Below, one piece after another: positions 1,710 to 54,676 of a DNA stretch of 54,676 bases; positions within the stretch are counted from its first letter, which is position 1; every line of letters begins with the position of its first letter. The position numbers and the translations under genes were made by a program. Under the pieces are notes generated by a model that was not told where the DNA came from, did not search any database, and was given only the letters and a program-made list of their open reading frames with translations. Source of the stretch: a virus. Lineage: Duplodnaviria; Caudoviricetes. The stretch covers positions 1 through 54,676 of IMG/VR virus record IMGVR_UViG_3300009161_000056, one strand, 5' to 3'.

Positions 1710-3650
1710 ATGGCAGTCCCACAACAACAACCCGTAGGTGGTTTGGGCGCAATGGCTCCAAAGCCTCAAGGTGCGCCTCCTCCAGAGCCTAGCGAAGCAA
1801 AGGATGCCGCCCGTATCTCTAGCATGGAGCAGGATCAGCCTGATACCCCAGCGAACATGATGGATCGTGCGATCCAAAAGCAACGTGAAGCGGCTCGCGC
1901 TCTGGAAACCCAGACAGCACTACTGCGTCAAAGTTACGACGCAAGGATGAACCTGCCCTTTGATACGTCATTGATGGCGGCGGCGGCTGGTTTCTTAAAG
2001 CCCACAAAGACTGGATCGTTTGGCGAGTCTGCTGGATATGCCGCTGAAAACTATGCGGCTGACGCTGAAAAAGCCCAGCTTCGCAAGCAACAAGCAGAGA
2101 AGCAAAAACTTGAACTAGCCCAGCAAGAGATGGCAATGGGCACCAAGAACCTTGAGTTCGAGCATATGCTTCAGATGGCTGGCTACAACCCAGCACAAGC
2201 CGCAATAGTATCAAATGCCGCTGGTGTTTCTACCCCTGCTGGCGGTGTTCCTGCTGGTGGCGCACCTATGGCTGGTGGCGCTCCACGCCCTGCCTCCGCT
2301 CCTGCTAACGTAGGCCAGACTGGCGCTCCAAATGAATTGCCGATGATCTCTGACAGAGACATCACGACCGCCTATGCGATCTCCAAAGATCATGGAGACA
2401 AGATCGCCGCGATTGCCAAGATGCAACGTGAGGACTTGATTGTCAATGAAGGCAACGTGTTCTCTAAGAGCCAGAAGAAATTCTTGGATGTCACTCCTCC
2501 TAACGAGAAGGCGGCAGACTTTAACTTTGGCCCCGCTGGTGACCGTAAGACAACCCCTGATGTGTATCGCGAATACAAGCAAATTATTGCAAGCGGCACA
2601 GACGATCAATTGCGCGACTTCTTTATTAGACAGCGTTGGCTGGCTGGCACTCCTTCTGGTGCCCCTCGGATTGGCTCGGCTGGTACAGCGCCAGCAGGAG
2701 GCGCGGCTCCCGCAGGTGCAACACCTTCAGTAGGTGGAGCAACACCAGCAGGAAAGCTACCCGCTGGCGGATTTGGTTTGCCAAGCAAGTTTAAGACCGC
2801 AGAAGAACTAGCGCAAGAGAAGATGAACCAAGAGACCGCTCTTGCAGAAAACAAAAAGTATGCAGAAGCCGCAGGAGAGATGGCAAACGATTTGCGTCTG
2901 TCTGCATTCTCTGCAACTGATATTAAAGCGTTGGCTCAAGAGGCTGGCTCTATTGCCAAAGCCGCCGCGCCTGCATTCAAGTTGTTGATGAACAAAGACG
3001 ACCAGTTCCGAAATGAGTTTGATGCCTATATGCAAATGGCAAAGACTGGAGCGCAGGCTGGTCAATTTGGAAGTTTCAGTATTCCTACTGACATCATTGA
3101 GAGAAACGGACTTACGTCTGAACAGATTCAAGCCTTGCAAAAGTTTGCTCAGATTGAAGCTCAGTTCACGTTGTTCAACCGCCGCCTATGGCTCAAAGGT
3201 CAGGGCGCGATTTCCAATGGTGAGAGTACGGTTGCGGCACAACTTGGCCCGCAGGCATCAGATCGCCCAGAGGTGATTCAGATGAAGGCCCAAGCGATTG
3301 AGCGCAAGGCTGATTTTGATGAGCAGACCTTTATGGCCTTTGAGCAGTGGAGGGAGAACAACCCCAACGGCGGCTTCAGTAAGTTCATCTCGCAATCGCC
3401 TGAGTTCAAGGCGCTCAAGACAGAATACATTGCCGACCTCAAAGCCATGCGCGATGCCAATGCAAAGTATTTTGCTGGGCCTAAGAAGCCAGCCACCACA
3501 CCTGCGGCTCCGCCAGCGGTTACGCCCACGCCAGTGCCTGCGGAGACTCCTCCCAAGCCTGCGGCAAAGCCACCCGCAAATGAAAATCCAGTGGATAGAT
3601 TTAAGCGCGAAAAAGCTGAACGCGAAAGAGCCGCACAAGGAAACCAATAA
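1710..3650 (+). CDS. Putative internal virion/ejection protein
   Basis: 646 aa; helical/coiled-coil segments with P/A/G linkers; lies between ejection genes. Confidence 0.6.
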   Translation: MAVPQQQPVGGLGAMAPKPQGAPPPEPSEAKDAARISSMEQDQPDTPANMMDRAIQKQREAARALETQTALLRQSYDARMNLPFDTSLMAAAAGFLKPTKTGSFGESAGYAAENYAADAEKAQLRKQQAEKQKLELAQQEMAMGTKNLEFEHMLQMAGYNPAQAAIVSNAAGVSTPAGGVPAGGAPMAGGAPRPASAPANVGQTGAPNELPMISDRDITTAYAISKDHGDKIAAIAKMQREDLIVNEGNVFSKSQKKFLDVTPPNEKAADFNFGPAGDRKTTPDVYREYKQIIASGTDDQLRDFFIRQRWLAGTPSGAPRIGSAGTAPAGGAAPAGATPSVGGATPAGKLPAGGFGLPSKFKTAEELAQEKMNQETALAENKKYAEAAGEMANDLRLSAFSATDIKALAQEAGSIAKAAAPAFKLLMNKDDQFRNEFDAYMQMAKTGAQAGQFGSFSIPTDIIERNGLTSEQIQALQKFAQIEAQFTLFNRRLWLKGQGAISNGESTVAAQLGPQASDRPEVIQMKAQAIERKADFDEQTFMAFEQWRENNPNGGFSKFISQSPEFKALKTEYIADLKAMRDANAKYFAGPKKPATTPAAPPAVTPTPVPAETPPKPAAKPPANENPVDRFKREKAERERAAQGNQ

Positions 3651-5482
3651 TGGACTTTAAAAAACTTTCGCCAGAGCAGATGAAGATTGCCGAGATGGTG
3701 ATCGAAGCGGCTAACGAAGTTGGCGTTGACCCTAATCTTTTGTTGGCGCAGGCGTATGAGGAAAGCCGTTTCCGCCATATTCCATCTACTGATCCAACCA
3801 GTGATGCGTTTGGTGTATTGCAAATTCGACCAAGCACAGCAGAATTAAACAAACTCGGCGACACCAGAGATTTGAAAACCAATATCTATGGTGGCGCAAA
3901 GCTGATGAAGCAGTACATTGACAAGTACAAGTCACCAGAGGCGGCGTTGTTGGCCTATCACCAAGGCCCCGGGGTCGCGGACACATACATCAAATCAAAT
4001 GGCGACCTTAAATCCGTTGGCCCCAAGGGCTTGGACTACGTCATCAACATTGGCACCAATGGTGGCTTCGGTCAACCGCCAGCGGAAGAAGCGGCGGCAG
4101 AAGGCGAAGAGCCTCCAAAGCCTCCGTTTGTGCCTGTAGCAAGCACGTTCCCAGAGGCCACCACCGACAACACTCAGACTCAAAAAAAGCCAGAGAACGT
4201 GGTGTCTCCAACTGCTGGCGCGATTACTGGCGCTCTTGCCAGCACGGTTGGTCAAGTTGGCTCTAAGCCAGAGTTGAAATATGCGGAAGCCCCTCCTGAT
4301 GTTTCGGCGGCAGAAAAAGCGGCAAGCAAAGCACAAAGACAATTTGACATTGCCGAAGAACGGCTGAACAAGCGCGTCAATAACGCCATGCCTATTGCTG
4401 GTGGAACAGACCTTGCCACGTTAGAGGCGGAGTACAGGCGCTCTCAACTCATGTTGCAAATAGCAGATCAGGAATTACAGGCCGCTACAGCCGCTCAAAA
4501 GGCCAAGGTAGCACCTACCCCTCCAGCGGCTAATTCTATGGCCTCTGCGACCCCTCAAATCATCATAGACCCCAATGCTCCCGTTCAAACTTCTCAAGAA
4601 AGAATACTTCAAGGAAAGATTGATCCAGCAACAGGTAACACTGGTCGCCAAAACATGGTTTTCAATGAAGTTACTTCATGGGAAGCAAATGAAAGAGAGT
4701 TGCAACAAAAGGCTTTAAAAGAAGCACAAAAAGCGGGTTTGATTCCAGATACTGGGCAACAGGTTCGTTCACAATTTGGTAAGCCAAGCGGAACTGCATC
4801 TGGATTGCTTGTAAAGCCAGAAGTTGGCGAGCCACTCAAACAACAAGCAGACCTTGAGCAAAAAATGGCGGACGACAAAGCCGCTCAAGAACGACTGGCC
4901 CAGCAAAATGAAATGAATCGCCTTAAAAACGAACGCGCTCTTGCGGCACAGGAACACAGCCAAGCCCAGAGTGCCTTCAATCAAGCGCAAAACGCCAAGA
5001 CCTCTGGAGTTACCCGCGCTCAGAACACAATGGAGACTGCGGAAGACAGAGCCAGACTGTTGGCTCAAGAGGCGCAAGAGGCTCGTGCGGCGGCAAAGAA
5101 TGCGCCAAACTTTGCCAACCGTCAATTGCAAAATATTGGTGTAGCAACCGCGAAGAGTGGCCCAATAGTCAAAGGTGGCTTGGGGGCGCTAGGTGGCTAT
5201 CAAGCCGCCAAGGGTATCAATACCTTGGCAAACCTGTCGCTGTCTGACCTGCAAAAACGGTATGACGATGGTGACCGTAGCCCAGAACTTATGACGGCAC
5301 TTGGGAAAGCCGCAGAGGCCACCGCGCAAGTTGGTGCTGGTGCGGCGGCGGCTATGCCTGCATTTGGTGACAAAACTGCCAAGATCAAAGGGGCGGGCCT
5401 TGCTGGAACCGCCGCGCTTGGAATATATGGACTTATGAACGCCGCTAAAGAAAAAGCAAGACAAAGGCGTGATAATCAATAG
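3650..5482 (+). CDS. Internal virion protein with N-terminal lytic transglycosylase (SLT) domain
   Basis: SLT motifs AQAYEESRF, AFGVLQIRPSTA, NIYGGAKLM, ALLAYHQGPG; coiled coil and hydrophobic C-terminus. Confidence 0.85.
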   Translation: MDFKKLSPEQMKIAEMVIEAANEVGVDPNLLLAQAYEESRFRHIPSTDPTSDAFGVLQIRPSTAELNKLGDTRDLKTNIYGGAKLMKQYIDKYKSPEAALLAYHQGPGVADTYIKSNGDLKSVGPKGLDYVINIGTNGGFGQPPAEEAAAEGEEPPKPPFVPVASTFPEATTDNTQTQKKPENVVSPTAGAITGALASTVGQVGSKPELKYAEAPPDVSAAEKAASKAQRQFDIAEERLNKRVNNAMPIAGGTDLATLEAEYRRSQLMLQIADQELQAATAAQKAKVAPTPPAANSMASATPQIIIDPNAPVQTSQERILQGKIDPATGNTGRQNMVFNEVTSWEANERELQQKALKEAQKAGLIPDTGQQVRSQFGKPSGTASGLLVKPEVGEPLKQQADLEQKMADDKAAQERLAQQNEMNRLKNERALAAQEHSQAQSAFNQAQNAKTSGVTRAQNTMETAEDRARLLAQEAQEARAAAKNAPNFANRQLQNIGVATAKSGPIVKGGLGALGGYQAAKGINTLANLSLSDLQKRYDDGDRSPELMTALGKAAEATAQVGAGAAAAMPAFGDKTAKIKGAGLAGTAALGIYGLMNAAKEKARQRRDNQ

Positions 5483-18607: not shown

Positions 18608-19210
18608 ATGCCAGAAACACCGAAGGGGCCAAAGAGGCCCGCAAAGAACGTAAGAGCGGCACAAGAGGCCGCAAAAGCAATTGGGAAGGCCAAGGTAGCC
18701 GCAAAGGCCACAAAGGCTCCTACGCCCGCTAAAACTGGCAGACCAACAAAGTACAACCAAGACACTGCTAACCTCATATGCATGATGCTAAGTGAGGGAA
18801 TGAGCTTGAGACAAATACTGAAGGCTGACACAGTAGGGAAACTCCCAGCGCAGTCTACGGTTTATGAGTGGTTGATACGCCACCCTCTCTTTCAAGAGCA
18901 ATACGCGCGCGCTCGTGAAGAGCAGGCTGACACCAACGCTGATGAAATCTTGGAGATTGCGGACGAGCATCCTCCTGAGTACACAGACGAGAAGGGCCGC
19001 ACGAGTCTGGACGTTACCTACATCCAGTGGCAGAAGAACCGCATCGAGGCCCGTAAGTGGACAGCCGCCAAGCTACGGCCCAAGAAGTATGGCGACCGTG
19101 TGGCGGTGGAGGGCGTGGAAGGTGGTGCCGCCATCAAGACTGAGGACGCTACTGCTGACAAGTTCCTTGAGATCATTCGCAACATGGAGATGAAGAAACG
19201 TGCTGGCTGA
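18608..19210 (+). CDS. terS: Terminase small subunit
   Basis: GRPTKY...ICMMLSEGMSLRQI...TVYEWL...YARARE...EILEIAD...RKWTAAKLRPKKYGD (Sf6-like); precedes TerL. Confidence 0.9.
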   Translation: MPETPKGPKRPAKNVRAAQEAAKAIGKAKVAAKATKAPTPAKTGRPTKYNQDTANLICMMLSEGMSLRQILKADTVGKLPAQSTVYEWLIRHPLFQEQYARAREEQADTNADEILEIADEHPPEYTDEKGRTSLDVTYIQWQKNRIEARKWTAAKLRPKKYGDRVAVEGVEGGAAIKTEDATADKFLEIIRNMEMKKRAG

Positions 19211-42818: not shown

Positions 42819-43337
42819 ATGATTCCAATCGTTGCATCCCTGCTAGGCACACTGGCCCAGAATGGTCTGGGCCTTTTGTCTTCTGCGATTCAAGCAAAAG
42901 GCAAAGAGGTTGTTGAAAACGCTCTTGGAGTAAAGATTTCAGACAACCCTTCTGACGCTGAAGTTGCCAAGTTACGCCAACTTCAATATGACCATGAAGA
43001 GCGTCTGCTTGAGTTAGGTATTGAAAAAGCCCGTTTGGAACAGGAAGAACTTAGGGTTCTGTTAGCGGCTCAAGCCAACCAAGAAAACAATGTCAGCGAC
43101 CGTTGGAAGGCTGATATGTCGTCCGACTCGTGGTTGTCAAAGAATGTGCGCCCCGGTACTCTGGTGTACCTCCTGACCGCTTATTTGATATTTGCATTGC
43201 TGGATGGCGGCGGATACAAGATTAGCGAGTCCTACGTCAACTTGTTGGGTCAATGGGGTATGTTGGTGATGACCGCCTACTTTGGTGGCCGCACCGTTGA
43301 GAAAGTCATGGAGATGCGCAAGAAGGACAAAGAATGA
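42819..43337 (+). CDS. Holin (3TM GTA-holin-like)
   Basis: SDSWLSKNVRP, two TMs, AYFGGRTVEK; overlaps endolysin start. Confidence 0.8.
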   Translation: MIPIVASLLGTLAQNGLGLLSSAIQAKGKEVVENALGVKISDNPSDAEVAKLRQLQYDHEERLLELGIEKARLEQEELRVLLAAQANQENNVSDRWKADMSSDSWLSKNVRPGTLVYLLTAYLIFALLDGGGYKISESYVNLLGQWGMLVMTAYFGGRTVEKVMEMRKKDKE

Positions 43338-43675
43338 GCCTCAGTCAAGAACAGGCGGCATTCTTGCTAGATGCCTGCAAACTCATCCAATACGCCACAG
43401 AGCAGGGTTTTATGGTTACTGGGGGGGAGTTAGCCAGAACCCCTGAACAGCAGGCCATATACGTTAAGACAGGCCGTTCCAAGACCCTTAATTCTATTCA
43501 CCTCAAGCGGTGCGCCATTGACTTGAACTTCTTCAAGGAAGGGCAGATAATATGGGACAAGGGCATCCTCGCGCCGCTGGGTGCTTATTGGGAAACTTTG
43601 AACCCCAAAAACCGCTGGGGTGGCAACTTTAAATCACTGGTGGATTGTCCACATTTTGAACGAAACGTGGGGTAA
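43334..43675 (+). CDS. Endolysin, M15-family peptidase
   Basis: RTPEQQ, SIHLKRCAID, RWGG, DCPHFE. Confidence 0.88.
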   Translation: MSLSQEQAAFLLDACKLIQYATEQGFMVTGGELARTPEQQAIYVKTGRSKTLNSIHLKRCAIDLNFFKEGQIIWDKGILAPLGAYWETLNPKNRWGGNFKSLVDCPHFERNVG

Positions 43676-43677
43676 AT

Positions 43678-44313
43678 ATGGCAACCGCATCGGTAATGAC
43701 TTACGACTCTTTGGTCGAGAATATCCAGTCTTACCTAGACCGTACTGATGACGATACGCTTGCCAAGATTCCGCTGTTCATTATGCTGGCAGAGCAGATT
43801 ATTGCCAGCCAAATCAAGTTTCTTGGCAATTTGATGGTTCAGACCTCGACCATGACAATTGGTCAGCCTATCATTGATAAACCAGCCCGCTGGCACAAGA
43901 CGGTCTCCATGAACGTGACCGTAGATGGTGAGAAACAACCTGTCTTGCTTCGTAAGTACGAGTACCTACGCGAGTACACCCCAGACGCAACAACGACTGG
44001 TGCGCCCGCTTATTACGGCGACTACGACTACACCCATTGGCTAGTCGCTCCCTCGCCTGCTGTTGCGTATGATTTTGAAGTTTTGTACTACGAGCGGCTC
44101 CAGCCGCTTGATTCCTCCAACCAAACCAACTGGTTTACCATTTACGCCCCACAGGCGTTGCTGTATGGGTCTTTGTTGCAAGCTATGCCATACGTCAAGA
44201 ACGATGAGCGGATGCCAATGTGGCAACAGAATTACGACCTCATCATTCAGACTTTGAAGTCTGAGGATGTCCAGCGTATTGGTGACCGTCAAGCCTCTGT
44301 ATTGGATACTTAA
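43678..44313 (+). CDS. Tail adaptor (tail tubular A-like) protein
   Basis: MTYDSL...YLDR...FIMLAE...APSP...TNW....PQALLYGSL. Confidence 0.75.
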   Translation: MATASVMTYDSLVENIQSYLDRTDDDTLAKIPLFIMLAEQIIASQIKFLGNLMVQTSTMTIGQPIIDKPARWHKTVSMNVTVDGEKQPVLLRKYEYLREYTPDATTTGAPAYYGDYDYTHWLVAPSPAVAYDFEVLYYERLQPLDSSNQTNWFTIYAPQALLYGSLLQAMPYVKNDERMPMWQQNYDLIIQTLKSEDVQRIGDRQASVLDT

Positions 44314-44315
44314 TC

Positions 44316-45548
44316 ATGTCGTCATTCAACTCCCCCTTCACAGGCAACGTCATCCAACCGACGGATGTTTCGTATCGCGAGATTTCAATAGCGAACACAA
44401 CCCTTCAATTGGAATGGCCCATCAACGGGAGTACAACCAATGATGCCGCCGCTCGTATTATGGAGGTCACCACAACTGGCGTTTCTGAGTTGTGGATGCC
44501 TCCTGCAAATCAGGCTTCGGTAGGGCAAGACGCACTGATTCGCAATATTGGTGGAGAAGACTTCACGGTCATGGACTACGCTGGAATTAACACGATTGTG
44601 ACCGTGTTGGTAGGCGAGGCTCAGTACATCTACATCACCGACAACGGTACTGAAGAAGGTGTTTGGGGCATCATTGCTTTTGGTATTGGTTCCTCTGGTC
44701 AAGATGCCGCCACTCTTGCTGGGTATGGCTTGTTGGCAATTGGTCAAACACTGAACCAGTCCCAGCCTGTTACAACTTTTTCCTCTAATTACACTGCGCT
44801 TACCACTGACCGCTCTAGCACCTATGTATGGACTGGTGGTGCGGGAACTTTGACTTTGAGCCTTGCGTCTACGCTTGCCGACAATTGGTTTATGTTTGTT
44901 CGCAACAGTGGAACGGGCGCTTTAACAATAACTGGAACTAGCGGTAACTTGGTAAACGGTTCTGCGTCAATTGTTTTGCAACCCGCAGACTCTTGCATCG
45001 TTGTTTGTAGTGGAACTCAGTTTTACACAGTTGGTTTGGGTCGAAATACGCAATTTGCGTTTACCCAATTATCTAAAGCAGTTTTGACTGGAACCTACAC
45101 CCTAACTGCTTCAGAGGCTTCTAACGTCATTCAGAAGTACACGGGCGCATTGACGGGCAACGTAACAATCATTGTTCCCTCTACGGTGCAGGTGTACTAC
45201 ATTGTCAATGCAACAACTGGTGCATACACGGTCACAATTTCAACGGGTTCTGGCGGTACTGCGGTTTTAACGACAGGAACTCAAGCCACATTGGTTTGTG
45301 ATTCAGTTAATTTGTATAACGCCAATACAATTCTTGCGGGTTCTTCAAACATTAGTTTAAACAATGGCTCTGTTGGAGCGCCTTCATTGAACTTTTCATC
45401 AGAAACCACAACAGGCGTGTACCGTGCGGCTTCTGGTGAGTTTAATATTTCTATTCTTGGTGTTTTGCGTTCAACAGTTTCTGCTTCTGGTTTAGCTATT
45501 GTTGGAACTGGTAACTTTACGGGTGGTGTTGCTGGCGGGACTTTCTGA
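44316..45548 (+). CDS. Tail structural protein
   Basis: 410 aa beta-rich; GSVGAPSLNF..TTGVYR; ends GGTF like the 35154 fibre. Confidence 0.7.
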   Translation: MSSFNSPFTGNVIQPTDVSYREISIANTTLQLEWPINGSTTNDAAARIMEVTTTGVSELWMPPANQASVGQDALIRNIGGEDFTVMDYAGINTIVTVLVGEAQYIYITDNGTEEGVWGIIAFGIGSSGQDAATLAGYGLLAIGQTLNQSQPVTTFSSNYTALTTDRSSTYVWTGGAGTLTLSLASTLADNWFMFVRNSGTGALTITGTSGNLVNGSASIVLQPADSCIVVCSGTQFYTVGLGRNTQFAFTQLSKAVLTGTYTLTASEASNVIQKYTGALTGNVTIIVPSTVQVYYIVNATTGAYTVTISTGSGGTAVLTTGTQATLVCDSVNLYNANTILAGSSNISLNNGSVGAPSLNFSSETTTGVYRAASGEFNISILGVLRSTVSASGLAIVGTGNFTGGVAGGTF

Positions 45549-47800
45549 TGGTCAAAAAAGTTTTTACCATTGACACGTTGCCGGGCGTCCAGCGCGATGG
45601 AACCGTGTTTGACCTGAACTTCTACACGGACGCTCGTTGGGTACGCTTTCAACGTGGTCGCCCAAGAAAAGTTGGTGGCTATCGCGCAATTGTCAGCAAT
45701 GCAAACGGATACTCTCGCGGCATATATGTCAACTCAGTCGATGGTGTCAACTCGGTTTTTAACGGGTACAACAACGGTCTTGAGGTTGTCAACATCAACA
45801 ACCTTGGCATTGGTTCTGGTGTTAATCAATTTACTTTTACAGGAAGAGCCTTAACGCTAAACACGCTTGTTGGTGGCTCTGGTTATGTAAACGCCACTTA
45901 TACGGCTGTACCGTTAACTGGGGGTTCTGGCTCTGGTGCAAAAGCTACCATTGTTGTATCTGGTGGTGCTGTGACCTCTGTGACTCTTACAAGTTATGGA
46001 AATAACTACGTTGTTGGCAATACATTGAGCGCATCAAACACCAATCTTGGTGGTAGTGGTTCTGGATTCTCAATTAAAGTTGCCACAATCACCACTTTTA
46101 CAGCAAGCGATTTAAACTTATGGCAGTTTGACTCTACGTTTGATGCTCAGGGTTCTGGAAACCAATTGCTATTGGCTCACGCTGGTCGTAACTTAGCGCA
46201 GATTGACCAAACAACGGTGACCCCAGTTTTGGCTGGAAACATCAATGGCACTACTTTGTCTCCGCTTACAGACACCAATGGAGCAACCCCAACAGGTGAC
46301 ATTATTGAAGTTGCTGGCGGTGTAGTGGTTTTGCACCCATACGTCTTTGTGTATGGAGACAACGGTTTAATCAAGAATTGTGTTGCTGGAGACCCATATG
46401 ATTGGAATGGTGCTGACTCCAACGAGACCAACGTGGCCTCCACAAAGATTGTCAAGGGTTTGCCAGTGCGAGGTGGCTCTAACGCTCCCTCTGGGCTGTT
46501 CTGGGCGTTAGACTCGTTGATTCGCGTCAGTTACACCCCAACCACCATAACGATTGCTGGAAACCCCCAAACCTTCTACTGGCGCTATGACATCATTTCC
46601 AGCCAGTCTTCTATTCTCTCCAGCCAGTGTGTCATTGAATATGACGGCATCTACTATTGGATTGGTGTTGACCGCTTCTTGATGTACAACGGCGTGGTTA
46701 AGGAAATAAAAAACACGTTCAATCAAAACTACTTTTTTGACAACTTGAACTATGCTCAACAGCAAAAAGTCTTTGTCAACAAAGTTCCACGTTTTGGTGA
46801 AATTTGGTGGTTCTTTCCTTCTGGCGATTCAGAAGAGTGCAACGACTGCATCATCTACAACGTGCGAGAAGATTGTTGGTATGACGCAGGCGAGGCTTTA
46901 GGCGCTCGTCGCACGGCTGGATACTTTTCTCAAGTGTTCCATTACCCCATCAATGCTGGGGCAACATTGAGTGAGCAGGAGGTTATTTTCTCTGCATCAA
47001 TCTCAACAACGAATGCAAGTGCTGTCATCACAATTTCCCCAAACAATTTAGTTGCTGTGGGTCAGCAAGTTGTATCTACAAGCGTACCTTCTGGGGCATT
47101 GGTCAGTTTGATTACGCCTAATGCGGCATCACCAACAGCAACTGGCACTTCTGGGGCAAGCACTATTGTGGTAAATAGTGCAACAGGCATAGTTTTAAAT
47201 CAATCCGTTGCAGGAACTGGTATTGGCGTGGGCGCTGTTGTGACCATTATTGCGGGAACGACCATCACTTTGTCTGTGGTCAACAGCAGTGCTGTATCAG
47301 GAACAATGTCGTTTTCTGGTTTGAGTTTGACTTTGTCTGCAAACGCAACGGCAACAATAATTGAAACCGCAAACTTTGATACCGTGGCTAATCAAATAAT
47401 TTTGTGGCAACATGAAATTGGAACTGACCAAGTTATTGATGAAACCACAGACGCTATTGAAAGTTACTTTGAAACAAGTGATTTGGGTTTTGTAGCTGGC
47501 GGGCCTTCCCAACCCGCACCAGTGGGCGAAAACTTTTGGGTCAATTTAGAGCGTGTTGAGCCTGATTTTATCCAAGAAGGCGAGATGACTTTTCAAGTGA
47601 TTGGTCGCCCCTACGCGCAGTCAGCAGACGTAGCGTCTGATCCTTATGTGTTTTCCCCAGATACGGGCAAAATTGATATGCGCCAGCAAAGGCGTGAAAT
47701 TCGTTTGCGTTTTAGAAGTAACGTAAGTGGTGGAAATTATCAAATGGGTAGGGTGTTGTTGAGCGTAACGCTTGGCGATGTCAGACCTTACGGAACTTAA
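45548..47800 (+). CDS. Tail nozzle/hub (P22 gp10 / tail tubular B-like)
   Basis: VRFQRGRPRKVGG, FGEIWWFFP, IIYN...WY, ERVEPDF motifs; two Gly/Thr-rich inserts. Confidence 0.75.
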   Translation: MVKKVFTIDTLPGVQRDGTVFDLNFYTDARWVRFQRGRPRKVGGYRAIVSNANGYSRGIYVNSVDGVNSVFNGYNNGLEVVNINNLGIGSGVNQFTFTGRALTLNTLVGGSGYVNATYTAVPLTGGSGSGAKATIVVSGGAVTSVTLTSYGNNYVVGNTLSASNTNLGGSGSGFSIKVATITTFTASDLNLWQFDSTFDAQGSGNQLLLAHAGRNLAQIDQTTVTPVLAGNINGTTLSPLTDTNGATPTGDIIEVAGGVVVLHPYVFVYGDNGLIKNCVAGDPYDWNGADSNETNVASTKIVKGLPVRGGSNAPSGLFWALDSLIRVSYTPTTITIAGNPQTFYWRYDIISSQSSILSSQCVIEYDGIYYWIGVDRFLMYNGVVKEIKNTFNQNYFFDNLNYAQQQKVFVNKVPRFGEIWWFFPSGDSEECNDCIIYNVREDCWYDAGEALGARRTAGYFSQVFHYPINAGATLSEQEVIFSASISTTNASAVITISPNNLVAVGQQVVSTSVPSGALVSLITPNAASPTATGTSGASTIVVNSATGIVLNQSVAGTGIGVGAVVTIIAGTTITLSVVNSSAVSGTMSFSGLSLTLSANATATIIETANFDTVANQIILWQHEIGTDQVIDETTDAIESYFETSDLGFVAGGPSQPAPVGENFWVNLERVEPDFIQEGEMTFQVIGRPYAQSADVASDPYVFSPDTGKIDMRQQRREIRLRFRSNVSGGNYQMGRVLLSVTLGDVRPYGT

Positions 47801-47801
47801 C

Positions 47802-48065
47802 ATGGCACTTCTTGCGCTTGTATACGACCCTCGGTATCACACATGGAACTCGTGGACGAGTCTTATGTGCGAGGCGTATGCGTCGCAACAGCTATCAATG
47901 AATACTCCAGAAGAGGATTGGAAGCAGTGGGCGGCGGGGTTGAAGGCGATTGATGTTTTTACAAACGAGGGCATCCCCGGCCCCTACATCTTTGAGAATT
48001 GGCAGGACTGGGCGCAGGCCATCGTCGGCGCTATAAACCAACCAACAGAGCAACCATACGAATGA
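47802..48065 (+). CDS. Trp-rich hypothetical protein (87 aa)
   Basis: ATG 1 nt after nozzle stop; ATGA overlap with ACP gene. Confidence 0.7.
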   Translation: MALLALVYDPRYHTWNSWTSLMCEAYASQQLSMNTPEEDWKQWAAGLKAIDVFTNEGIPGPYIFENWQDWAQAIVGAINQPTEQPYE

Positions 48066-48346
48066 TTGACTTTATTGAAATCTTCAACGTCGTGGCAAGG
48101 GTGGCAAAGCCCGTCCATATGTCTTTCAAGCCCGCCGAGGCTATGGAGGACGCAATGGCTGAATTGAACATTGACAGCTTGGATGGTTTGGTGATGCTAA
48201 TGTACTTCTGCGAAATCTACGGCGTAGACGACGAGACCAGCAAAGAATGGCACCCAACCACCGTGCAAGAGTGTCACGACCTGCTTATGGCCCACAAGAC
48301 CATAGAGCCTGAGTCCATTGAGAAGATCAAGGAGCAGATCAAGTGA
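48062..48346 (+). CDS. Acyl carrier protein-like protein
   Basis: 94 aa acidic; ELNIDSLDGL phosphopantetheine motif (Ser39); EIYGV and TTVQE match ACP helix pattern. Confidence 0.8.
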   Translation: MIDFIEIFNVVARVAKPVHMSFKPAEAMEDAMAELNIDSLDGLVMLMYFCEIYGVDDETSKEWHPTTVQECHDLLMAHKTIEPESIEKIKEQIK

Positions 48347-49458
48347 TCTACCTTACCCACTATCGGACGGCCTCCACAACCACGATCAACTTGTTTGACG
48401 ACATTGTCTACCCTCAGAAGGTTCACTGGTTCCCTGATACCTACGCCCGCGCCAAGAGCGGAATGTTCTACGTCCCTCACAAGCTCGCGGAAAAGGTTCT
48501 TGACCCTGAGTTGCTGACCTACTTGCGTGAGAATCAGGTAGGCAAGACTGCATTCATTTTGGCGGCTGGCAATGCCCACTTTGCTGGTATCAACCAGCGG
48601 CCCTACCCAAACAACAGCCTGAACTACGTCTACAAGTTCTTGCCATTCACCCTGACGCAGGTCTATGCAGGGCGGACTGCCCAAGCCTTTGGCAAGATGG
48701 ACATGGTGACGACCGATTCCTCGGCCTGCGCTTCCAGCCTCAAGGTGATGATGGATGTGCAGAACCTGATCAACCACTATCACTTTGATAGGGTCATCGT
48801 CCTGACCGTCGAGGATGGGATCACCAATGCCGTGTTGGAGTTTTTTGGCGAGGCCAAGGCCGTTTTGACCCAGAAGCAGGAAGAGACAGGCATTCAGCCC
48901 TCTGCTTTTGACAGCAAGAACTTTGGCTTCAGAATAGGCCAAGGAGCCGCGCTGGCGGTATTTGAGTCTGACTACGCCGTGGGTAAGCTCGATGCAACCC
49001 CTCACGCCCGTCTGGTTGGTGCCTACAGCGCGTCAGAAGCCTCTACAAACGCGATTGGACAGCTAGAGGATGGTGATGGCTTCTTCAAGGCAATCATGGG
49101 CGCTATGCACTATTCCAGCGTCTTAGCGGACGAAATAGGCATCGTCAAGACTCACGGCACGGGCACTGAGTCAAACAATAAAGCTGAAAAGACTGCCCTT
49201 CTAAACTCATTAGACCAGTTTGTTGCTACCTCGTATAAACAAAAAATTGGGCACACGATGGGTTCCAGTGGCCTATTGGAAACACTTTTATTGCTAGACG
49301 ATTTAAAATCTGGGTATGTGCCTGCGATTGAGAACAGAACAGAAACCGATTTGGTATTCCTTTCGGAATCAGTTTCCAAGCCAGATGGTTTGATTCTTAG
49401 TCTCGCGGCTGGTATGGGGAATATCTATTCCGCCGCAATATTCGAGGAACTGACATGA
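48343..49458 (+). CDS. Beta-ketoacyl-ACP synthase (FabB/FabF-like thiolase fold)
   Basis: SSACASS (Cys129), GQGAALAV, KTHGTGT (His271), SYKQKIGH (Lys299/His304). Confidence 0.9.
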   Translation: MIYLTHYRTASTTTINLFDDIVYPQKVHWFPDTYARAKSGMFYVPHKLAEKVLDPELLTYLRENQVGKTAFILAAGNAHFAGINQRPYPNNSLNYVYKFLPFTLTQVYAGRTAQAFGKMDMVTTDSSACASSLKVMMDVQNLINHYHFDRVIVLTVEDGITNAVLEFFGEAKAVLTQKQEETGIQPSAFDSKNFGFRIGQGAALAVFESDYAVGKLDATPHARLVGAYSASEASTNAIGQLEDGDGFFKAIMGAMHYSSVLADEIGIVKTHGTGTESNNKAEKTALLNSLDQFVATSYKQKIGHTMGSSGLLETLLLLDDLKSGYVPAIENRTETDLVFLSESVSKPDGLILSLAAGMGNIYSAAIFEELT

Positions 49459-49904
49459 ACATGATAGACAGCAGTCAACAGCAGTTGACCAGTGAGCAGA
49501 TCATTGAGATAGCCGCTGAGAACACCAAAGTTGGTCGCCCGATCAAAGAGGTCAAGGAGATGCTGACCGTTGAGTTTCGGATGCCTAACGTGTGGAAGAT
49601 GCGCGAAGGCAATACGCTTTTCATTGTTCACAAAAGCAAAGAGGCTGGCTATGGTTTCTTTCGCGCCTTGAATGCAGACAGTGCCCGTAACTTTTTACAA
49701 AATAGCCGAGTTTTTGCAGATGCCGCCTACAAGGTTGGCTTTGATGTGGTGGTGACTCAATTCAGTGACTTGAGCTTGCTTGGTTTGTTCAAGGCAATTG
49801 CCCGCGACCCTGTGCGTGAAGGCATGGGCTACAGCGCACAAAAGACAACCGATGGCGGACTGCAAGTTACGTTGGTGCTTGGCCCAGCGAGGGGAAATAA
49901 ATAA
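49455..49904 (+). CDS. Hypothetical protein, possibly GNAT-like acyltransferase
   Basis: 149 aa alpha/beta pattern; syntenic with T7 gp13/P22 gp14 position; fold is inferred. Confidence 0.45.
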   Translation: MNMIDSSQQQLTSEQIIEIAAENTKVGRPIKEVKEMLTVEFRMPNVWKMREGNTLFIVHKSKEAGYGFFRALNADSARNFLQNSRVFADAAYKVGFDVVVTQFSDLSLLGLFKAIARDPVREGMGYSAQKTTDGGLQVTLVLGPARGNK

Positions 49905-51790
49905 TGAGCGCCATAGTTAATGCAATTGTTGATGCTGTTGAAGGCATCGTTGAGGCTGTTGGTGACGTTGTCGAGACCGTTGTTGAGGTTGCAGGCAAGG
50001 TCATGGATGCGGTCGCAGAGAATCCTCTGTTGATTGTTGCGGCTATTGCGGCCCCGTATGCGCTAAGTTATCTTGCCGCAGAGGCTGGCATTGTGGGCGC
50101 TCTTGAGGTGGCTGGAACACTGGAGGCCGTGGAGGTTGGTACGGCTGTGCTGGAGGCCACTGAGGCTGTAACCGCAATTGCAAGCGCAGAAACTGTTGCC
50201 GCAACAACTTTGATTGAGGCTGGCGCTACAGTCGAAGCCGCCGCAACTGGCGCTTCTTTGGTTGCTGAAGGAGCAACGGTAGTTGAGGCTGTGTCTACTG
50301 CGTCCGCAGGCACTGTTACAACATCTAGTTTTGTCGAAGCCGCAAGCGGCGCTTTTGATGCTGTGACAAATGCGGCAAGCACCCTATCGCAGGGCGCAAA
50401 TAATATTCTTACAACCATTGGCGAGACTTTGTTGCCTGATGCCAGCGCGTCAGTTCAGCAATTGGCTGGCAAGGTTGCAATCAATACCGCAACCAATGGT
50501 GGTGACTTTGGTCAAGCCCTGACAGATTCTTTGATCTCTGTGGGTACTGGCTTTGTTGGTAGCGAGATCGCCGCTGAGACTGGCTCAAAAATAGTTGGTC
50601 AGGTTGCGTCCTCAACATTAAACTCCGCCGCGCATGGACAGAATGTTGACTTTGGAACAATTGGAACCAGCCTTCTTGGTGCTACGGTTGCAAATGAAGT
50701 TACTGATTTGACTGGTTCTAACCTTGCTGGTAAGGCCGCTGGATCAATTACCAGAGATGTCATCAACGACAAGGACGTTGGCACTGGCCTATTGACCCTT
50801 GGCGCAAATGAGTTGGGCAATGTGGTTACGGGCCAGATTGGAGACTACGTTGACAAGACTGCGTTGAGCGGTCAAACCACTGGCACCGACTCTAGCACCA
50901 ACAGTACAACGCTTACGGGCGACGACAACAACCAAATCGTCACCAATTTTGGGGGCAGTACGGATGTCAACGATATTATTTCGGACATCAACGGCGCAAA
51001 CGATACAAACACAGACACCACAAAAGGCGCGTTGACAACTATTGCCAACTCTAATTTGGCGGGTACAGACTCAACCACAAACAACACATCAACTTCTGAT
51101 ACAACTGTCAACGGTACGCTCACAACTGGCACTGGTTTAACTGGCACTAGCTTGACTGGCCTAGGCGATGAAGAAGATGACGACATTGTTGTAACGGGCG
51201 GCACTCCAACAACCACTGGCACCGATACCACCACTGGCACGGTGACGGTTACTGGCGCAGACACCACTGGGTCTACCACACCTGTCGGCGGTCTAACCAC
51301 AGCAACAAATAACTTGCTTGGTACTGACACAACTGCTACTGATACAACAGCAACCACCACAACTGGCGGTTTGAATACGTTGGCGCAAAACACTGACACT
51401 GTTACTGGTGGTACAGGCACTGACACTGTTCAAGGCGTAACTGGAACCGATACGGTGACCAGCGGCTCTGGCACATCAAACGTCACAAGTGGACTTGGTG
51501 GCACGTTGGTCAAGAAGCTCATTGGCGACACAACCAAGAAAGTTGCTGGCACCGCAACAAGGGGTGCAATCAACAGCGCCGTGACTGGCAAGAAGATGCC
51601 AGCCTTGTCAGTTCCAAAGGCTTTGACAGGTTCTGCGTTGTCTGCAATCCAAAAAGCCGCACCTAAAAAGGTAGACATTTCCAAGCTGTCGCCTGCAACA
51701 AAATCAGTCCCCGTCAAGGTGGATGTGAGTAAACTGACACCACTCGCAAACATTTCAGGGTTGACTTCTCTCTTAAAGAAATCGGGGTAA
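49904..51790 (+). CDS. Putative internal virion/ejection protein
   Basis: Amphipathic then hydrophobic N-terminus, A/G-rich helices, Thr-rich region, basic C-terminus. Confidence 0.65.
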   Translation: MSAIVNAIVDAVEGIVEAVGDVVETVVEVAGKVMDAVAENPLLIVAAIAAPYALSYLAAEAGIVGALEVAGTLEAVEVGTAVLEATEAVTAIASAETVAATTLIEAGATVEAAATGASLVAEGATVVEAVSTASAGTVTTSSFVEAASGAFDAVTNAASTLSQGANNILTTIGETLLPDASASVQQLAGKVAINTATNGGDFGQALTDSLISVGTGFVGSEIAAETGSKIVGQVASSTLNSAAHGQNVDFGTIGTSLLGATVANEVTDLTGSNLAGKAAGSITRDVINDKDVGTGLLTLGANELGNVVTGQIGDYVDKTALSGQTTGTDSSTNSTTLTGDDNNQIVTNFGGSTDVNDIISDINGANDTNTDTTKGALTTIANSNLAGTDSTTNNTSTSDTTVNGTLTTGTGLTGTSLTGLGDEEDDDIVVTGGTPTTTGTDTTTGTVTVTGADTTGSTTPVGGLTTATNNLLGTDTTATDTTATTTTGGLNTLAQNTDTVTGGTGTDTVQGVTGTDTVTSGSGTSNVTSGLGGTLVKKLIGDTTKKVAGTATRGAINSAVTGKKMPALSVPKALTGSALSAIQKAAPKKVDISKLSPATKSVPVKVDVSKLTPLANISGLTSLLKKSG

Positions 51791-51793
51791 ATC

Positions 51794-54676
51794 ATGGCAA
51801 TTTTGCAAAAGCGCAAATCAACAAAACAACTTCCTCGTTTTGAGCGTTATCAGGACACCAGAGGTGGTGACCGTGCCGCCGCCCTGCGTGGTGAGACCCC
51901 AATTACTTCTGCTGTTCGCCAACTAGCTGGCACAAGCGGCTACGGCCCTATGGAAGACCAAGGCTTTAGACCTATGGGTGGTCGAGGCGCTGAAGGCGTT
52001 TTGGGTACTGGCGCGGCTGGCTTTGGCGGTCGCCCTGCAAGCAACGTAACAAGCACTTTGGCTGGCACCCCAACAAATCAAGCTGGGTCATCAGCAAGGC
52101 CAGCAGGATCAACTGCGGCGGCTCCTAAAACAATTACCTCAACAGGAACTGGCGCTACAAAGCCTGCCGCTTCTACGTCTTCTAAATTGCCATCGTTGAC
52201 AAGTACAACAGGCGCAACAAAACCTGCGACCTCTTTAACTTCTACTGGCTCTGGCGCGGCTAAAACAACCACTCCAGCCAAGACTTTGACTTCTACTGGG
52301 TCTGGTGCGGCTAAAACAACTCCTGTTACAACGCCAGCAAAAACCACATCAAGTGGCTCTTCGCTTGGCAAGACACTGACCAGCGCATTGGCTGGTGCCG
52401 CCTTAGGTGTTGGCACAAAAGCTGTCGTTGACAAATTTACTGGCGGAAACAAAACCAGCAACACATCTAACACTGCAAATTCTGGAACTGGTTTAAAAGT
52501 TACTGGAAACAAAAATCTTGACACTATGGGTGGTGGCACAGGTCTTACAAGCAAAACCAATCCTCTTGGCACCAATATTGGAACAGGAACTTCAGGCACT
52601 GGTATTAAGACAACGGGCACTTCTGGTACTGGCCTCAAGACCACGGGCACTACAGGCACTACTGGTTCTACTGCCGTTACTTCCCCAGTTAAAACTCCCG
52701 TGGTTAAGACTACGGGAACAACTGGCACGACTGGCACAACAAAAACTACTCCTACCTCGGTGGTAAAACCGACGACTACTGTTGGCCCTAAGACACCAAC
52801 AAGCACTGGCCCTAAGACTCCTACGTCTACTGGCCCCAAAACACCTACTGGCACAGGCCCAAAGACTCCAGCAGGCACAGGCGGAACTCGCGGTATTGCG
52901 GGAACTGCTGGCGCGGCGGCTGGTGCAACCACTGGCGGTACTGATACGACTGGCACAGGGGTAACTGGAGTTGCATACGACGACGACGGCAACTTGATGC
53001 CGGGGTACGAACTGGACGAAGAAGGCAATCCTGTTTATGTTGGCATGGGCGGCACAGACACTGCCGTAGTGACTGACACCGTAGACAACGGCGACGGCAC
53101 AACGACCGTGACTTACGATGACGGTAGCACCGTGACCACGGACATCACTGGCGATGTTGTTGACTCTACCGACGCGATAGATACTGGTGATGACACCACT
53201 GTAGCTGACGGCTACTTTACTGATGATGAAGGTAATGTCTATGACGGTGAAGGTAACTTAGTTCAGTACGCTGATGGCTCCGTATATGAAGAGGGTGGCG
53301 ATACTGATGTTGCCTACACCGACGATTACGGAAACACTTATGACGCAAACGGCGACTTGATTGCCGAGGCGGATCACTCGGACTACGTTTACACCGCAGA
53401 CGACGGTAGCACTTATGACTGGGACGGTAACCTGATTGCTGAAGCAGATCACACTGGTTTCACCCAAGAAGATGAGTACGGCAACACCTACGACTACGAC
53501 GGTAACTTGGTTTCCTACGCCGATGGCTACAACCCAGATGACTACACCAACGAAGACGACACGGAATATGCATCTGTTGACGACGAGGAAATTGACTTTG
53601 GCGCAAAGGGTGGTTTGTTTGGTATGGCAAAAGGCGGAGTGCCTAGTTTTGCTGATGGCGACGCTGTTTACTCTGACACTGAAGAAGAAGTCCAGCCTTT
53701 TCAAAATGTCGATTACAACTACGGTGAGTTTGACGATCCCACAATGACTGGTGACCTGTCTTTGTATTCGCAAAGTGGCCCAATTAGAAACACTTACGCA
53801 AGAGCATCAAGCGCGTCTGTTGCTGACCCTGTTGCTGAAAACGACAACGGCGATGGAACCATAACGCAGTTCTTTGATGACGGCTCGTCCATTACTTATG
53901 ACACCGACGGCAATGTGTTGGATGTGACTGAGGTAACAGACGGAAGCTCAACTGGTGGAACTTCGCAAGGTGGAACTGACAACCGTCAATACTTTGATGA
54001 TGGCTCCTACATTGAGACATTTGATGATGGTTCAACCGTTACCTATGATGCGGAGGGAAATGCGTTTAGTTCAACAGATGTTGATGGCAAAACAGAACTT
54101 GCAAAAACAACCACCTATGACGACGAGGGCAACCAAATTGTCAGTGACTACTATGGCAACATAGTTAAAGTTCTTGACCCAGAAGGCAAAGTAATTCCTT
54201 TGGGCGGTGGTCGAGTAAATGCTGGGCCAATTACAGGCGCAGGTAGCGGAAAGACAAGCTACGACCTGACACCAAACAAAACGCCCGCACAAATTGCGGC
54301 TGAAAACAGACAGAAAAAAATTGATGAAGGTGAGCAACAAAGCGCGATTGACAAGTTGCTTGCTGGTATCAACACCAACACTGGCGCTGGTGTGACTGGG
54401 GCTGTTCTGGGCGCGTTGCTAGGTAACTCTGACCTGTTCAGCAGTGGCAGTGGAAACAACAGTGCTGGCTTTGATATGTCCAAGGTTGGAACGATTGATC
54501 CACGCACTACAGACTTTGGCATTGGCCCAGCGAACTATGTTGGTTATGACCAGTACGGTACGCCAGAGCAGATGCCTGAGTTGTATGGAAATGAGTTGTA
54601 TCAGAACCTTAACGCCCCCGGCTTTAACGAGGTGAACGAGGGCGACTACGCCCGCATGGACGCTGAAGAGAATGGC
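51794..54676 (+). CDS. N-terminal part of ~1170-aa protein continuing into 145..774 (missed by the ORF track because it has no stop in the window)
   Basis: Open frame MAILQKRKSTKQLPRFERY...; T/K/P-rich region then acidic YD-like repeats; in frame with overlap. Confidence 0.85.
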   Translation, partial: MAILQKRKSTKQLPRFERYQDTRGGDRAAALRGETPITSAVRQLAGTSGYGPMEDQGFRPMGGRGAEGVLGTGAAGFGGRPASNVTSTLAGTPTNQAGSSARPAGSTAAAPKTITSTGTGATKPAASTSSKLPSLTSTTGATKPATSLTSTGSGAAKTTTPAKTLTSTGSGAAKTTPVTTPAKTTSSGSSLGKTLTSALAGAALGVGTKAVVDKFTGGNKTSNTSNTANSGTGLKVTGNKNLDTMGGGTGLTSKTNPLGTNIGTGTSGTGIKTTGTSGTGLKTTGTTGTTGSTAVTSPVKTPVVKTTGTTGTTGTTKTTPTSVVKPTTTVGPKTPTSTGPKTPTSTGPKTPTGTGPKTPAGTGGTRGIAGTAGAAAGATTGGTDTTGTGVTGVAYDDDGNLMPGYELDEEGNPVYVGMGGTDTAVVTDTVDNGDGTTTVTYDDGSTVTTDITGDVVDSTDAIDTGDDTTVADGYFTDDEGNVYDGEGNLVQYADGSVYEEGGDTDVAYTDDYGNTYDANGDLIAEADHSDYVYTADDGSTYDWDGNLIAEADHTGFTQEDEYGNTYDYDGNLVSYADGYNPDDYTNEDDTEYASVDDEEIDFGAKGGLFGMAKGGVPSFADGDAVYSDTEEEVQPFQNVDYNYGEFDDPTMTGDLSLYSQSGPIRNTYARASSASVADPVAENDNGDGTITQFFDDGSSITYDTDGNVLDVTEVTDGSSTGGTSQGGTDNRQYFDDGSYIETFDDGSTVTYDAEGNAFSSTDVDGKTELAKTTTYDDEGNQIVSDYYGNIVKVLDPEGKVIPLGGGRVNAGPITGAGSGKTSYDLTPNKTPAQIAAENRQKKIDEGEQQSAIDKLLAGINTNTGAGVTGAVLGALLGNSDLFSSGSGNNSAGFDMSKVGTIDPRTTDFGIGPANYVGYDQYGTPEQMPELYGNELYQNLNAPGFNEVNEGDYARMDAEENG
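52784..52879 (+). repeat. Four tandem 24-nt coding repeats (GPKTP[TA][SG]T)
   Basis: GPKTPTST GPKTPTST GPKTPTGT GPKTPAGT. Confidence 0.85.
54533..54676. repeat. Terminal overlap (copy 2) with 1..144
   Basis: See 1..144. Confidence 0.95.

Follow-up and report, generated by a model that had tools for sequence, protein, structure and literature searches.

Acylation that relies on a dedicated acyl carrier protein (ACP) is already known, and our literature searches found no description of it in a phage late operon, where we now propose it. HlyC-type enzymes use acyl-ACP as donor and acylate lysines of pore-forming proteins that are secreted (PMC5279801), while CdiC of class IV contact-dependent inhibition (CDI) loci, a homologue of the acyltransferases that lipidate RTX toxins, places 3-hydroxydecanoate on CdiA (PMC8510554). 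Salmonella IacP is a dedicated ACP for acylation of SipB, a translocon component of the type III secretion system, and the authors propose that a ketosynthase (KS), FabB, loads it (PMC5279801); NodF, an ACP, and NodE, a KS, make a special chain for an N-acyltransferase (PMC9048898). On the phage side, internal virion protein A (IVP-A) of T7 yields acetyltransferase matches by HHpred, is required for morphogenesis and does not remain part of the virion, and standard homologues of IVP-A occupy the equivalent place in P22 and epsilon15 (Hardies et al., PMC4819975). Here we describe genes for an ACP and a KS, directly followed by a gene for a GNAT-fold protein, in the late operon of a tailed phage known from IMG/VR record IMGVR_UViG_3300009161_000056, a virus record taken whole (54,676 bases, estimated completeness 100%) whose full sequence is called the window below. 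The reading that we put forward, tentatively and as somewhat short of probable, is that the three genes form an acyl-transfer module, in which a host acyl chain passes through a private ACP and the GNAT-fold protein acylates an ejection protein.

The first of the three genes (Table 1) encodes a true ACP. The window protein gave no Pfam match at E ≤ 0.1 and no NCBIfam match, PHROGs returned only a weak match to phrog_28189 (0.0018), and its relatives scored 16.6-17 bits on PF00550, below the gathering cut-off of 20.8. We found 67 homologues, some of which carry the JGI name "acyl carrier protein". Across a 20-sequence alignment D38-S39-L40-D41 is invariant, and the profile of these 20 sequences matched solved ACPs, spinach ACP (2ava) at 5.8e-5 with DSLD opposite DSLD; 58 of its 60 best rows against solved structures were ACPs. 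An AlphaFold 2 (AF2) model (pLDDT 90.3) is a helical bundle with helices at residues 4-15, 39-53, 57-60, 68-78 and 86-92, and when it was searched against the PDB with Foldseek the top rows were all ACPs at probability 1.0, the best E value being only 0.029 and none reaching 0.001. D38 and S39 are retained in 160 of 160 phage ACP homologues, and phosphopantetheine is predicted to attach at Ser39, which lies within DSLD at the start of helix 2.

The KS encoded next matches PF00109 (1.2e-10, 41.9 bits) and PF02801 (2.3e-12, 47.4 bits), with a cut-off of 20.8 bits, and phrog_35856 at 6.6e-39. Because its closest solved relatives, FabF proteins (2rjt, 1.7e-19), align only from residue ~99, its N-terminal part is divergent and shorter; about 30 N-terminal residues are missing from the alignment with FabF-like proteins, and the FabF equivalog model TIGR03150 gives 102 bits against a cut-off of 493.75, covering residues 99-336 only. 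When the KS was aligned with eight FabF-like proteins, Cys129, His271, Lys299 and His304 stood in register with the catalytic residues, and SLAAGMGNIY took the place of SNSFGFGGHN, the C-terminal glycine-rich FGFGG loop not being found. Neither this Cys/His/Lys/His set nor GMGN is lost in any of the 161 phage KS sequences (146 unique). Since the catalytic or attachment residues are kept in all 161 KS and all 160 ACP sequences, the two proteins would be working enzymes rather than decoys, and such universal retention argues for catalysis by the ACP-KS pair, not for binding alone.

By its predicted structure, the 149-aa protein encoded directly after the KS has a GNAT acyltransferase fold. It matched no Pfam and no PHROG family, its family profile gave no match at E ≤ 10 against the sequences of solved structures, and 20 family members searched against Pfam at E ≤ 10 returned nothing apart from four single chance rows; on Atlas it falls into unnamed viral clusters, with DUF2824 and Acetyltransf_1 clusters as distant leads only. 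An AF2 model (pLDDT 88.9) was the basis for the fold comparisons that follow. Foldseek gave 12 PDB matches at E ≤ 0.001, comprising 11 acetyl- or acyltransferases and one RNase E row. VIA-align superposed the model on RimI (5isv) with a Z score of 10.5 and a root-mean-square deviation of 2.9 over 122 residues, 104 chains reached Z ≥ 8, and the best 50 entries were nearly all acetyl- or acyltransferases, several of them protein N-terminal acetyltransferases (RimI, Ard1, Naa80). When the model was searched against BFVD, the best matches were uncharacterised phage proteins, and rows 13 (E 1.7e-4, TM 0.50) and 27 (E 2.9e-3) bear the name "Internal virion protein A". The gene also lies where T7 encodes that protein: on the T7 map gene 13 (IVP-A, 138 aa) stands between gene 12 and the ejection genes 14-16, and the 149-aa gene stands between a nozzle-like gene and the ejection proteins. 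Since no sequence relation to T7 gp13 was detected (PF11090, which T7 gp13 itself matches at 1.1e-47, is not matched by the phage protein), assignment as a putative IVP-A counterpart rests on position and fold. A predicted complex of the ACP with the GNAT-fold protein scored 0.10 against a mark of 0.32 and is evidence neither way.

The phages that carry these genes are uncultured, come from fresh water and form a large group. Queried with the window KS, IMG/VR gave 399 matching stretches, a profile of distant KS members matched at least 562, and a 90%-clustered protein collection yielded at least 1,711 KS matches with 8,000 candidates scored; P0203 and P0216, two distant representatives of the KS, matched nothing related when IMG/VR was scanned with them. 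GenBank holds one true phage relative, MW202545.1 (KS 62%, ACP 45% identity), in which the gene order is identical, and GenBank "phage" records that match only KS residues ~99-343 at 23-30% identity resemble contaminating host fab genes. We surveyed 160 phage loci (L001-L081, L163-L241) by profile searches on stop-to-stop frames, counting each feature over the loci with room for it. The ACP gene lies directly before the KS gene in 157 of 157 loci and the GNAT gene directly after it in 132 of 145; a nozzle homologue is found just upstream of the KS in 139 of 154, and a homologue of orf97, the small ORF that precedes the ACP gene in the window, lies upstream in 109 of 154, a different small ORF replacing it in other phage sub-lineages. 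In a metagenome scan the KS was present in all 80 loci kept, with the ACP adjacent in 69 of 70 and the GNAT gene after the KS in 56 of 66; of the ten loci lacking the latter, the KS is followed by an HlyC-like gene in seven and, across a gap, by a glyoxalase-family gene in three. Because this order recurs in independent contigs, the arrangement reflects neither chance nor misassembly. In the window the genes run on one strand in the order nozzle-like, orf97, ACP, KS, GNAT, 628-aa protein and a very large ORF, and from the orf97 stop onward the junctions, read directly from the DNA, are ATGA, GTGA, ATGA and TAATG overlaps, the orf97 stop overlapping the ACP start at ATGA.

A first-pass annotation of this DNA had anticipated much of the above. 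It had recognised an ACP-like ORF with a DSL motif and Ser39, now confirmed by the family profile, the AF2 fold and the invariant D38-S39, and a FabB/F-like enzyme with C129, H271, K299 and H304, residues that the alignment with FabF-like proteins places in register. Its description of that enzyme as divergent, with a short N-terminus and AAGMGNIYS in place of the usual motif, agrees with the alignments, and the overlapping junctions that it reported between the nozzle region and the ejection protein are present in the DNA. Misassembly, which it had named as a finding that would undo its case, is ruled out by the recurring gene order. Its gene list was right for the ACP and the KS and missed the 149-aa GNAT-fold gene between the KS and what it called the first ejection protein.

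We then examined where the KS family stands among ketosynthases. A search of 1.84 billion representatives returned 52 KS matches at E ≤ 1e-30, many of them full-length (~360-390 aa) and covering the special N-terminus, and ordinary KS proteins appeared only from ~1e-15 to 1e-20, aligning from residue ~100. Two trees place the family apart from FabF-like proteins at full support, across a long branch, so the ACP-KS pair is not a stray host fab copy. Contamination by a host fab gene was likewise rejected, as the window KS falls in a clade separate from FabF. The phage KS clade (57 rows, SH-aLRT 99) has as its sister, with moderate support (85), the KS of two Burkholderiales metagenome-assembled genomes (MAGs; L088 and L089) together with P0195. 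The family is rare in cells: 13 loci were found among one genome each of 185,579 species, several of them on phage-like contigs, and within Burkholderiales it occurs in 1 of 401 genomes, namely the genome at the centre of the search.

The setting of these bacterial relatives bears on function. In L088 a weak HlyC-like ORF is followed by ACP, KS, HlyC (PF02794, 66 bits), a TolC-like protein and RTX-repeat proteins (PF00353, 2e-44), and in L089 the ORFs on either side of the ACP-KS pair both score above the HlyC cut-off (75 and 30.5 bits). An HlyC operon of the same kind occurs in another bacterial group, of lower GC (L276, L287, L273, L275 and L247; PF02794 at 64-77 bits), which in L276 and L287 reads giant RTX-like protein, HlyC, ACP, KS, HlyC; GC is ~0.5 in these two and 0.69 in L089, and in L280 and L323 the HlyC-like assignment was made by similarity only. 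No description of an HlyC-ACP-KS-HlyC operon was found in the single literature search that touched on it, and its composition suggests a private acyl donor for lipidation of RTX-type proteins. Together, the GNAT gene directly after the KS and the HlyC operons of the sister group point towards protein acylation.

Six-frame family scans of the 54.7-kb genome found no phosphopantetheinyl transferase (PPTase; PF01648), FabD (PF00698), SDR reductase (PF13561) or FabA/Z dehydratase (PF07977), as the first-pass annotation had stated, and no match to HlyC (PF02794) at E ≤ 1. In control searches each family was above its cut-off in 9 to 13 of 14 named genomes, except HlyC, which gave a signal in 2 of 14 and was above its cut-off in none. 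Since ACPS, FabD, reductase and dehydratase are lacking, the phage cannot make a fatty acid alone and can only tap the host pathway.

As for the acceptor, the 628-aa protein encoded after the GNAT-fold protein matched no Pfam or PHROG family. We surveyed the N-terminus of the gene in this position in 129 loci (114 unique N-termini) and obtained the consensus M-[S/G]-A-V-V: of the 114, 62 have Ser at residue 2, 41 have Gly, 5 each have Ala or Pro and 1 has Thr, residue 3 is Ala in 97 and residue 4 is Val in 103. All five amino acids seen at residue 2 permit removal of the initiator Met. Protein N-terminal acetyltransferases are among the closest fold matches of the GNAT-fold protein. The N-terminal Ser/Gly of the 628-aa protein is a suggestive candidate for the acyl-acceptor site, and only suggestive because the sequences are homologues and their conservation could have other causes. 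Separately, T7 gp14, encoded right after the acetyltransferase-like gp13, starts Met-Cys-Trp; we draw no inference from this.

From the identities, folds, conservation and linkage of the three genes, the separate KS clade and the lipidation context of its relatives, all of them observed, we infer each chemical step of the following route. Since the phage encodes neither enzyme, host AcpS would prime Ser39 of the phage ACP and host FabD would load malonate. Given the intact Cys-His-His-Lys set and established KS chemistry, the phage KS would take a host acyl chain on Cys129, decarboxylate malonyl-phage-ACP and condense the two, leaving a chain longer by two carbons on the private carrier. The GNAT-fold protein would then take the acyl group off the phage ACP and place it on an amine of one of the ejection proteins, with the N-terminal Ser/Gly of the 628-aa protein as candidate site. 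The lipidated protein would be packaged and, after ejection, would anchor in the host envelope and help to build the DNA channel. A wider version of this proposal, which seems to us unlikely, is that podovirus IVP-A in general, in T7 (gp13) as in its counterparts, works as an N-acyltransferase that depends on acyl-ACP and puts a fatty acid on the N-terminus of the first ejection protein, exposed once Met has been removed (M-[S/G]-A-V-V), and that the present clade brings its own ACP and KS.

A number of observations, given here and in the next paragraph, weigh against lipidation of an ejection protein. In 13 of 145 phage loci the ACP-KS pair lies in a non-structural region without the GNAT gene (Table 1). 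A helicase-type gene, so identified from one locus (L231, Helicase_C at 22.1 bits, narrowly below the Pfam cut-off of 23.5), precedes the pair, and small non-structural ORFs including DUF3310 come after it; in two of these loci (L174 and L175) the gene directly after the KS encodes a FabZ-type dehydratase (PF07977, ~1e-30). The pair can function apart from virion genes, and since the site is non-structural and two of the loci have FabZ, a metabolic role fits this second lineage at least as well. FabZ there points to real chain elongation, and phage ACPs are usually annotated as metabolic genes (PMC11705849). GNAT-type IVP-A proteins are described at this very site in T7, P22, epsilon15 and phiRIO-1-like podoviruses, and the available portion of that description mentions no ACP-KS (PMC4819975). 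Because IVP-A GNATs occupy the site in podoviruses not reported to have the pair, adjacency of ACP-KS and GNAT alone is weak evidence, and the GNAT-fold protein may simply be a resident neighbour. Even so, we think it rather unlikely that the two genes are an auxiliary metabolic pair that redirects or boosts host type II fatty-acid synthesis (chain length, membrane or lipid A supply) beside an ordinary IVP-A and unconnected with virion proteins. In the tree the GNAT-less loci are nested inside the GNAT-linked clade, with at least three changes of state, so the late-operon site looks ancestral; phages of the window's lineage couple translation of the pair to that of late virion genes; and its closest relatives in cells appear to work in protein acylation rather than in bulk lipid synthesis. 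A lone KS without reductases, moreover, adds little flux where the host has FabB/FabF.

The GNAT-fold protein brings difficulties of its own. The Q/RxxGxG/A motif, which binds the pyrophosphate of CoA in GNAT enzymes, was not seen by eye after strand 4 of the family alignment, and hhalign gave a probability of 0.3 against the HlyC neighbour of the bacterial KS and of 0.2 against T7 gp13, the latter a weak test with a single sequence on one side. Relatives of the KS also occur in other settings. Those of Campylobacterota (33-36% identity; L091 and L093) lie in a lipid/polyene-type cluster with an SDR, a 4HBT thioesterase, a second ACP, a second KS, a shorter KS-like ORF, a methyltransferase-like ORF, a weak LolA-like protein and an AMP-ligase-like ORF, some of these ORFs having been checked against Pfam; the cluster is reminiscent of aryl-polyene or lipid clusters and, like the second phage lineage, shows the pair put to other uses. 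The KS of a Rhodocyclaceae MAG (L083) is chromosomal with its ACP. Both trees put it well inside the phage clade, and in the first it is, at 68% identity, closer to the window KS than any other single sequence. No acyltransferase was seen nearby; the pair comes after a DUF6345 protein and an unknown protein of 292 aa, with housekeeping genes around it, and this copy may be a phage-to-cell transfer. Our literature searches found no description of an ACP-KS-GNAT module in phages, in agreement with the first-pass annotation, which knew of no characterised equivalent in tailed phages; this speaks for novelty and is also counted against the proposal, as is a 2022 review of ejection proteins, in a term search of which "acyl", "myristoyl" and "acetyltransferase" did not turn up.

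Some of the same facts would suit a non-protein target, with the trio making an N-acyl amino acid or signal-like molecule, or modifying lipopolysaccharide (LPS) or peptidoglycan, for superinfection exclusion, lysis control or receptor masking. Acyl-ACP or long-acyl GNATs do occur among the fold matches (TofI 3p2h, NcdE 9nij, Rv1347c 1yk3), the Campylobacterota relatives sit in a small-molecule or lipid cluster, and NodF/NodE supply a special chain that NodA places on a sugar backbone (PMC9048898). We consider such a target distinctly unlikely, however: the fold matches are generic for GNAT and the best are protein N-terminal acetyltransferases, the phage operon has no transporter, ligase or tailoring gene, and the site between nozzle and ejection proteins is fixed. 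Very unlikely, in our judgement, is that ACP-KS is a mobile two-gene cassette at a permissive late-operon junction with an unrelated role, such as anti-defence or binding a host ACP partner. The pair does appear in at least five contexts (phage late operon, phage non-structural region, RTX/HlyC operons, the Campylobacterota cluster and the Rhodocyclaceae chromosome), and third-position GC is 0.71 in the ACP gene and 0.62 in the KS gene, with 0.60 in orf97 and 0.57 in the GNAT gene, above the 0.43 of the flanking nozzle gene and the 0.46 of the 628-aa gene, a rise that may stem from a separate origin or from other demands on expression. Yet strict retention of Cys/His/His/Lys and Ser39 argues for catalysis over binding alone, and linkage to the GNAT gene holds in 132 of 145 loci although KS identities to a distant family member drop to ~40%. 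The central claim of the first-pass annotation, a dedicated lipidation module rather than a metabolic pair, to be checked by synteny and phylogeny, thus stands in part: the separate clade, the site that is fixed in most phage loci and the HlyC-operon sister group favour it, and the 13 loci elsewhere, two with FabZ, and the Rhodocyclaceae copy inside the phage clade do not.

The other genes located in the window are given in Table 1, and tail-fibre-like genes are also encoded. The upstream edge of the module is the 750-aa nozzle-like gene. The small Trp-rich orf97 matched no Pfam or PHROG family and had no usable Atlas match. The 610-aa protein with a transglycosylase-like part fits the last member of a T7-like internal-protein set. 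The protein at the far end of the window shows repeated TYDxxGN(L/I/V)-type motifs resembling YD repeats, and long Thr/Gly/Pro-rich tracts. Same-strand frames are open at both ends of the record (1-774 and 51794-54676), which is classed "linear"; since they are, the large ejection-like gene probably continues across the ends, which suggests a circularly permuted record. A promoter and terminator scan of 43000-52500 gave counts no higher than in shuffled sequence.

Table 1. Positions of the genes in the window and of the comparison loci named in the text.
Feature	Record	Position	Strand	Remarks
610-aa protein, N-terminal transglycosylase-like part	window	3650..5482	+	phrog_14342 5e-11; phrog_13449 "transglycosylase" 1.5e-9
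Terminase	window	19200-20639		
1192-aa ORF between terminase and portal	window	20642-24220		sole match weak: phrog_21376 (unknown function), 1.3e-12
Portal	window	24223-26733		
SU10-type adaptor	window	43678-44313		PF24175
Nozzle-like / tubular-tail-B-like virion protein, 750 aa	window	45548..47800	+	phrog_3287 "virion structural protein" 7.9e-25
orf97, small Trp-rich ORF	window	47802..48065	+	start TTG 47772 or ATG 47802
ACP, 94 aa	window	48062..48346	+	
Divergent FabF/FabB-type KS, 371 aa	window	48343..49458	+	
GNAT-fold protein, 149 aa (orf149)	window	49455..49904	+	candidate acyltransferase
First ejection-like protein, 628 aa	window	49904..51790	+	conserved N-terminus, hydrophobic segment
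Second large internal/ejection-like protein	window	51794..54676	+	runs off window end; from ORF list and translation
GNAT-less phage locus	L174	5702-7558		FabZ after KS
GNAT-less phage locus	L175	2773-4632		FabZ after KS
Other GNAT-less phage loci	L166, L168, L170, L180, L184, L200, L212, L214, L218, L231, L233			
Burkholderiales HlyC operon	L088	7277-17119		
Burkholderiales HlyC operon	L089	3775-6021		
Bacterial HlyC operon	L276	8-6578		
Bacterial HlyC operon	L287	35-6547		
Campylobacterota cluster	L091	7634-14469		
Campylobacterota cluster	L093	5121-13309		
Rhodocyclaceae ACP-KS	L083	6064-9128		
T7 gp14	L242	3729-4319		

How the ejection proteins of short-tailed phages enter and cross two membranes, and what IVP-A (T7 gp13) does, is still unexplained, and a private ACP and KS directly ahead of an IVP-A-like factor give a concrete, testable idea, namely lipidation of ejection proteins. 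If that is true, tailed phages would have a first virus-encoded route to protein lipidation, parallel to the myristoylated entry proteins of animal viruses, and if the wider proposal for IVP-A also holds, the long-unexplained role of this protein in morphogenesis would be lipidation. Whatever holds for the phage, the HlyC-ACP-KS-HlyC operon of bacteria suggests that a dedicated carrier, and not the housekeeping ACP, provides some RTX-like proteins with a custom acyl chain.

Compared with known systems, the phage KS shares with FabF/FabB the thiolase-fold families PF00109 and PF02801 and a Cys-His-His plus Lys set in register, but is ~40 residues shorter, has ~98 unalignable N-terminal residues and AGMGN for FGFGG, and forms a separate long-branch clade. 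NodE is a full-length KS, whereas the phage KS belongs to a separate short clade. The likeness to NodF/NodE/NodA lies in an adjacent special ACP and KS that borrow the host fatty-acid pathway and an N-acyltransferase that attaches the chain; the acceptor of NodA is a chito-oligosaccharide (PMC9048898). To the HlyC/TAAT family (PF02794) the likeness is one of outline, with a small acyltransferase, an ACP-borne chain and a protein bound for a membrane, the phage side of which we conjecture, and cellular cousins of the phage pair stand inside HlyC-ACP-KS-HlyC operons beside RTX-repeat proteins. The phage itself, in contrast, is without an HlyC-family gene and its GNAT-fold protein shows no sequence relation to HlyC, while classical HlyA activation is described as using the housekeeping ACP with no private ACP-KS (PMC5279801). 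IacP-SipB likewise joins a private ACP to a membrane-perforating delivery apparatus with which it is encoded, the acylated protein inserting in the target membrane (PMC5279801), but IacP uses a host KS and probably S-acylates a cysteine, whereas the phage, known from its genes alone, encodes both a KS and a GNAT-fold protein. With T7 gp13/IVP-A the 149-aa protein shares its position after the tubular-tail-B/nozzle gene and before the ejection proteins, and its size (138 versus 149 aa), although genes 12 and 13 of T7 have neither an ACP nor a KS gene between them. Non-enveloped animal viruses have N-myristoylated penetration proteins, such as picornavirus VP4, made with host N-myristoyltransferase and acyl-CoA. 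If the phage ejection protein is indeed lipidated, both would be fatty-acylated internal capsid proteins that are released at entry and attack the host membrane, a likeness of pure analogy, and the difference would be that the phage brings its own carrier, KS and transferase.

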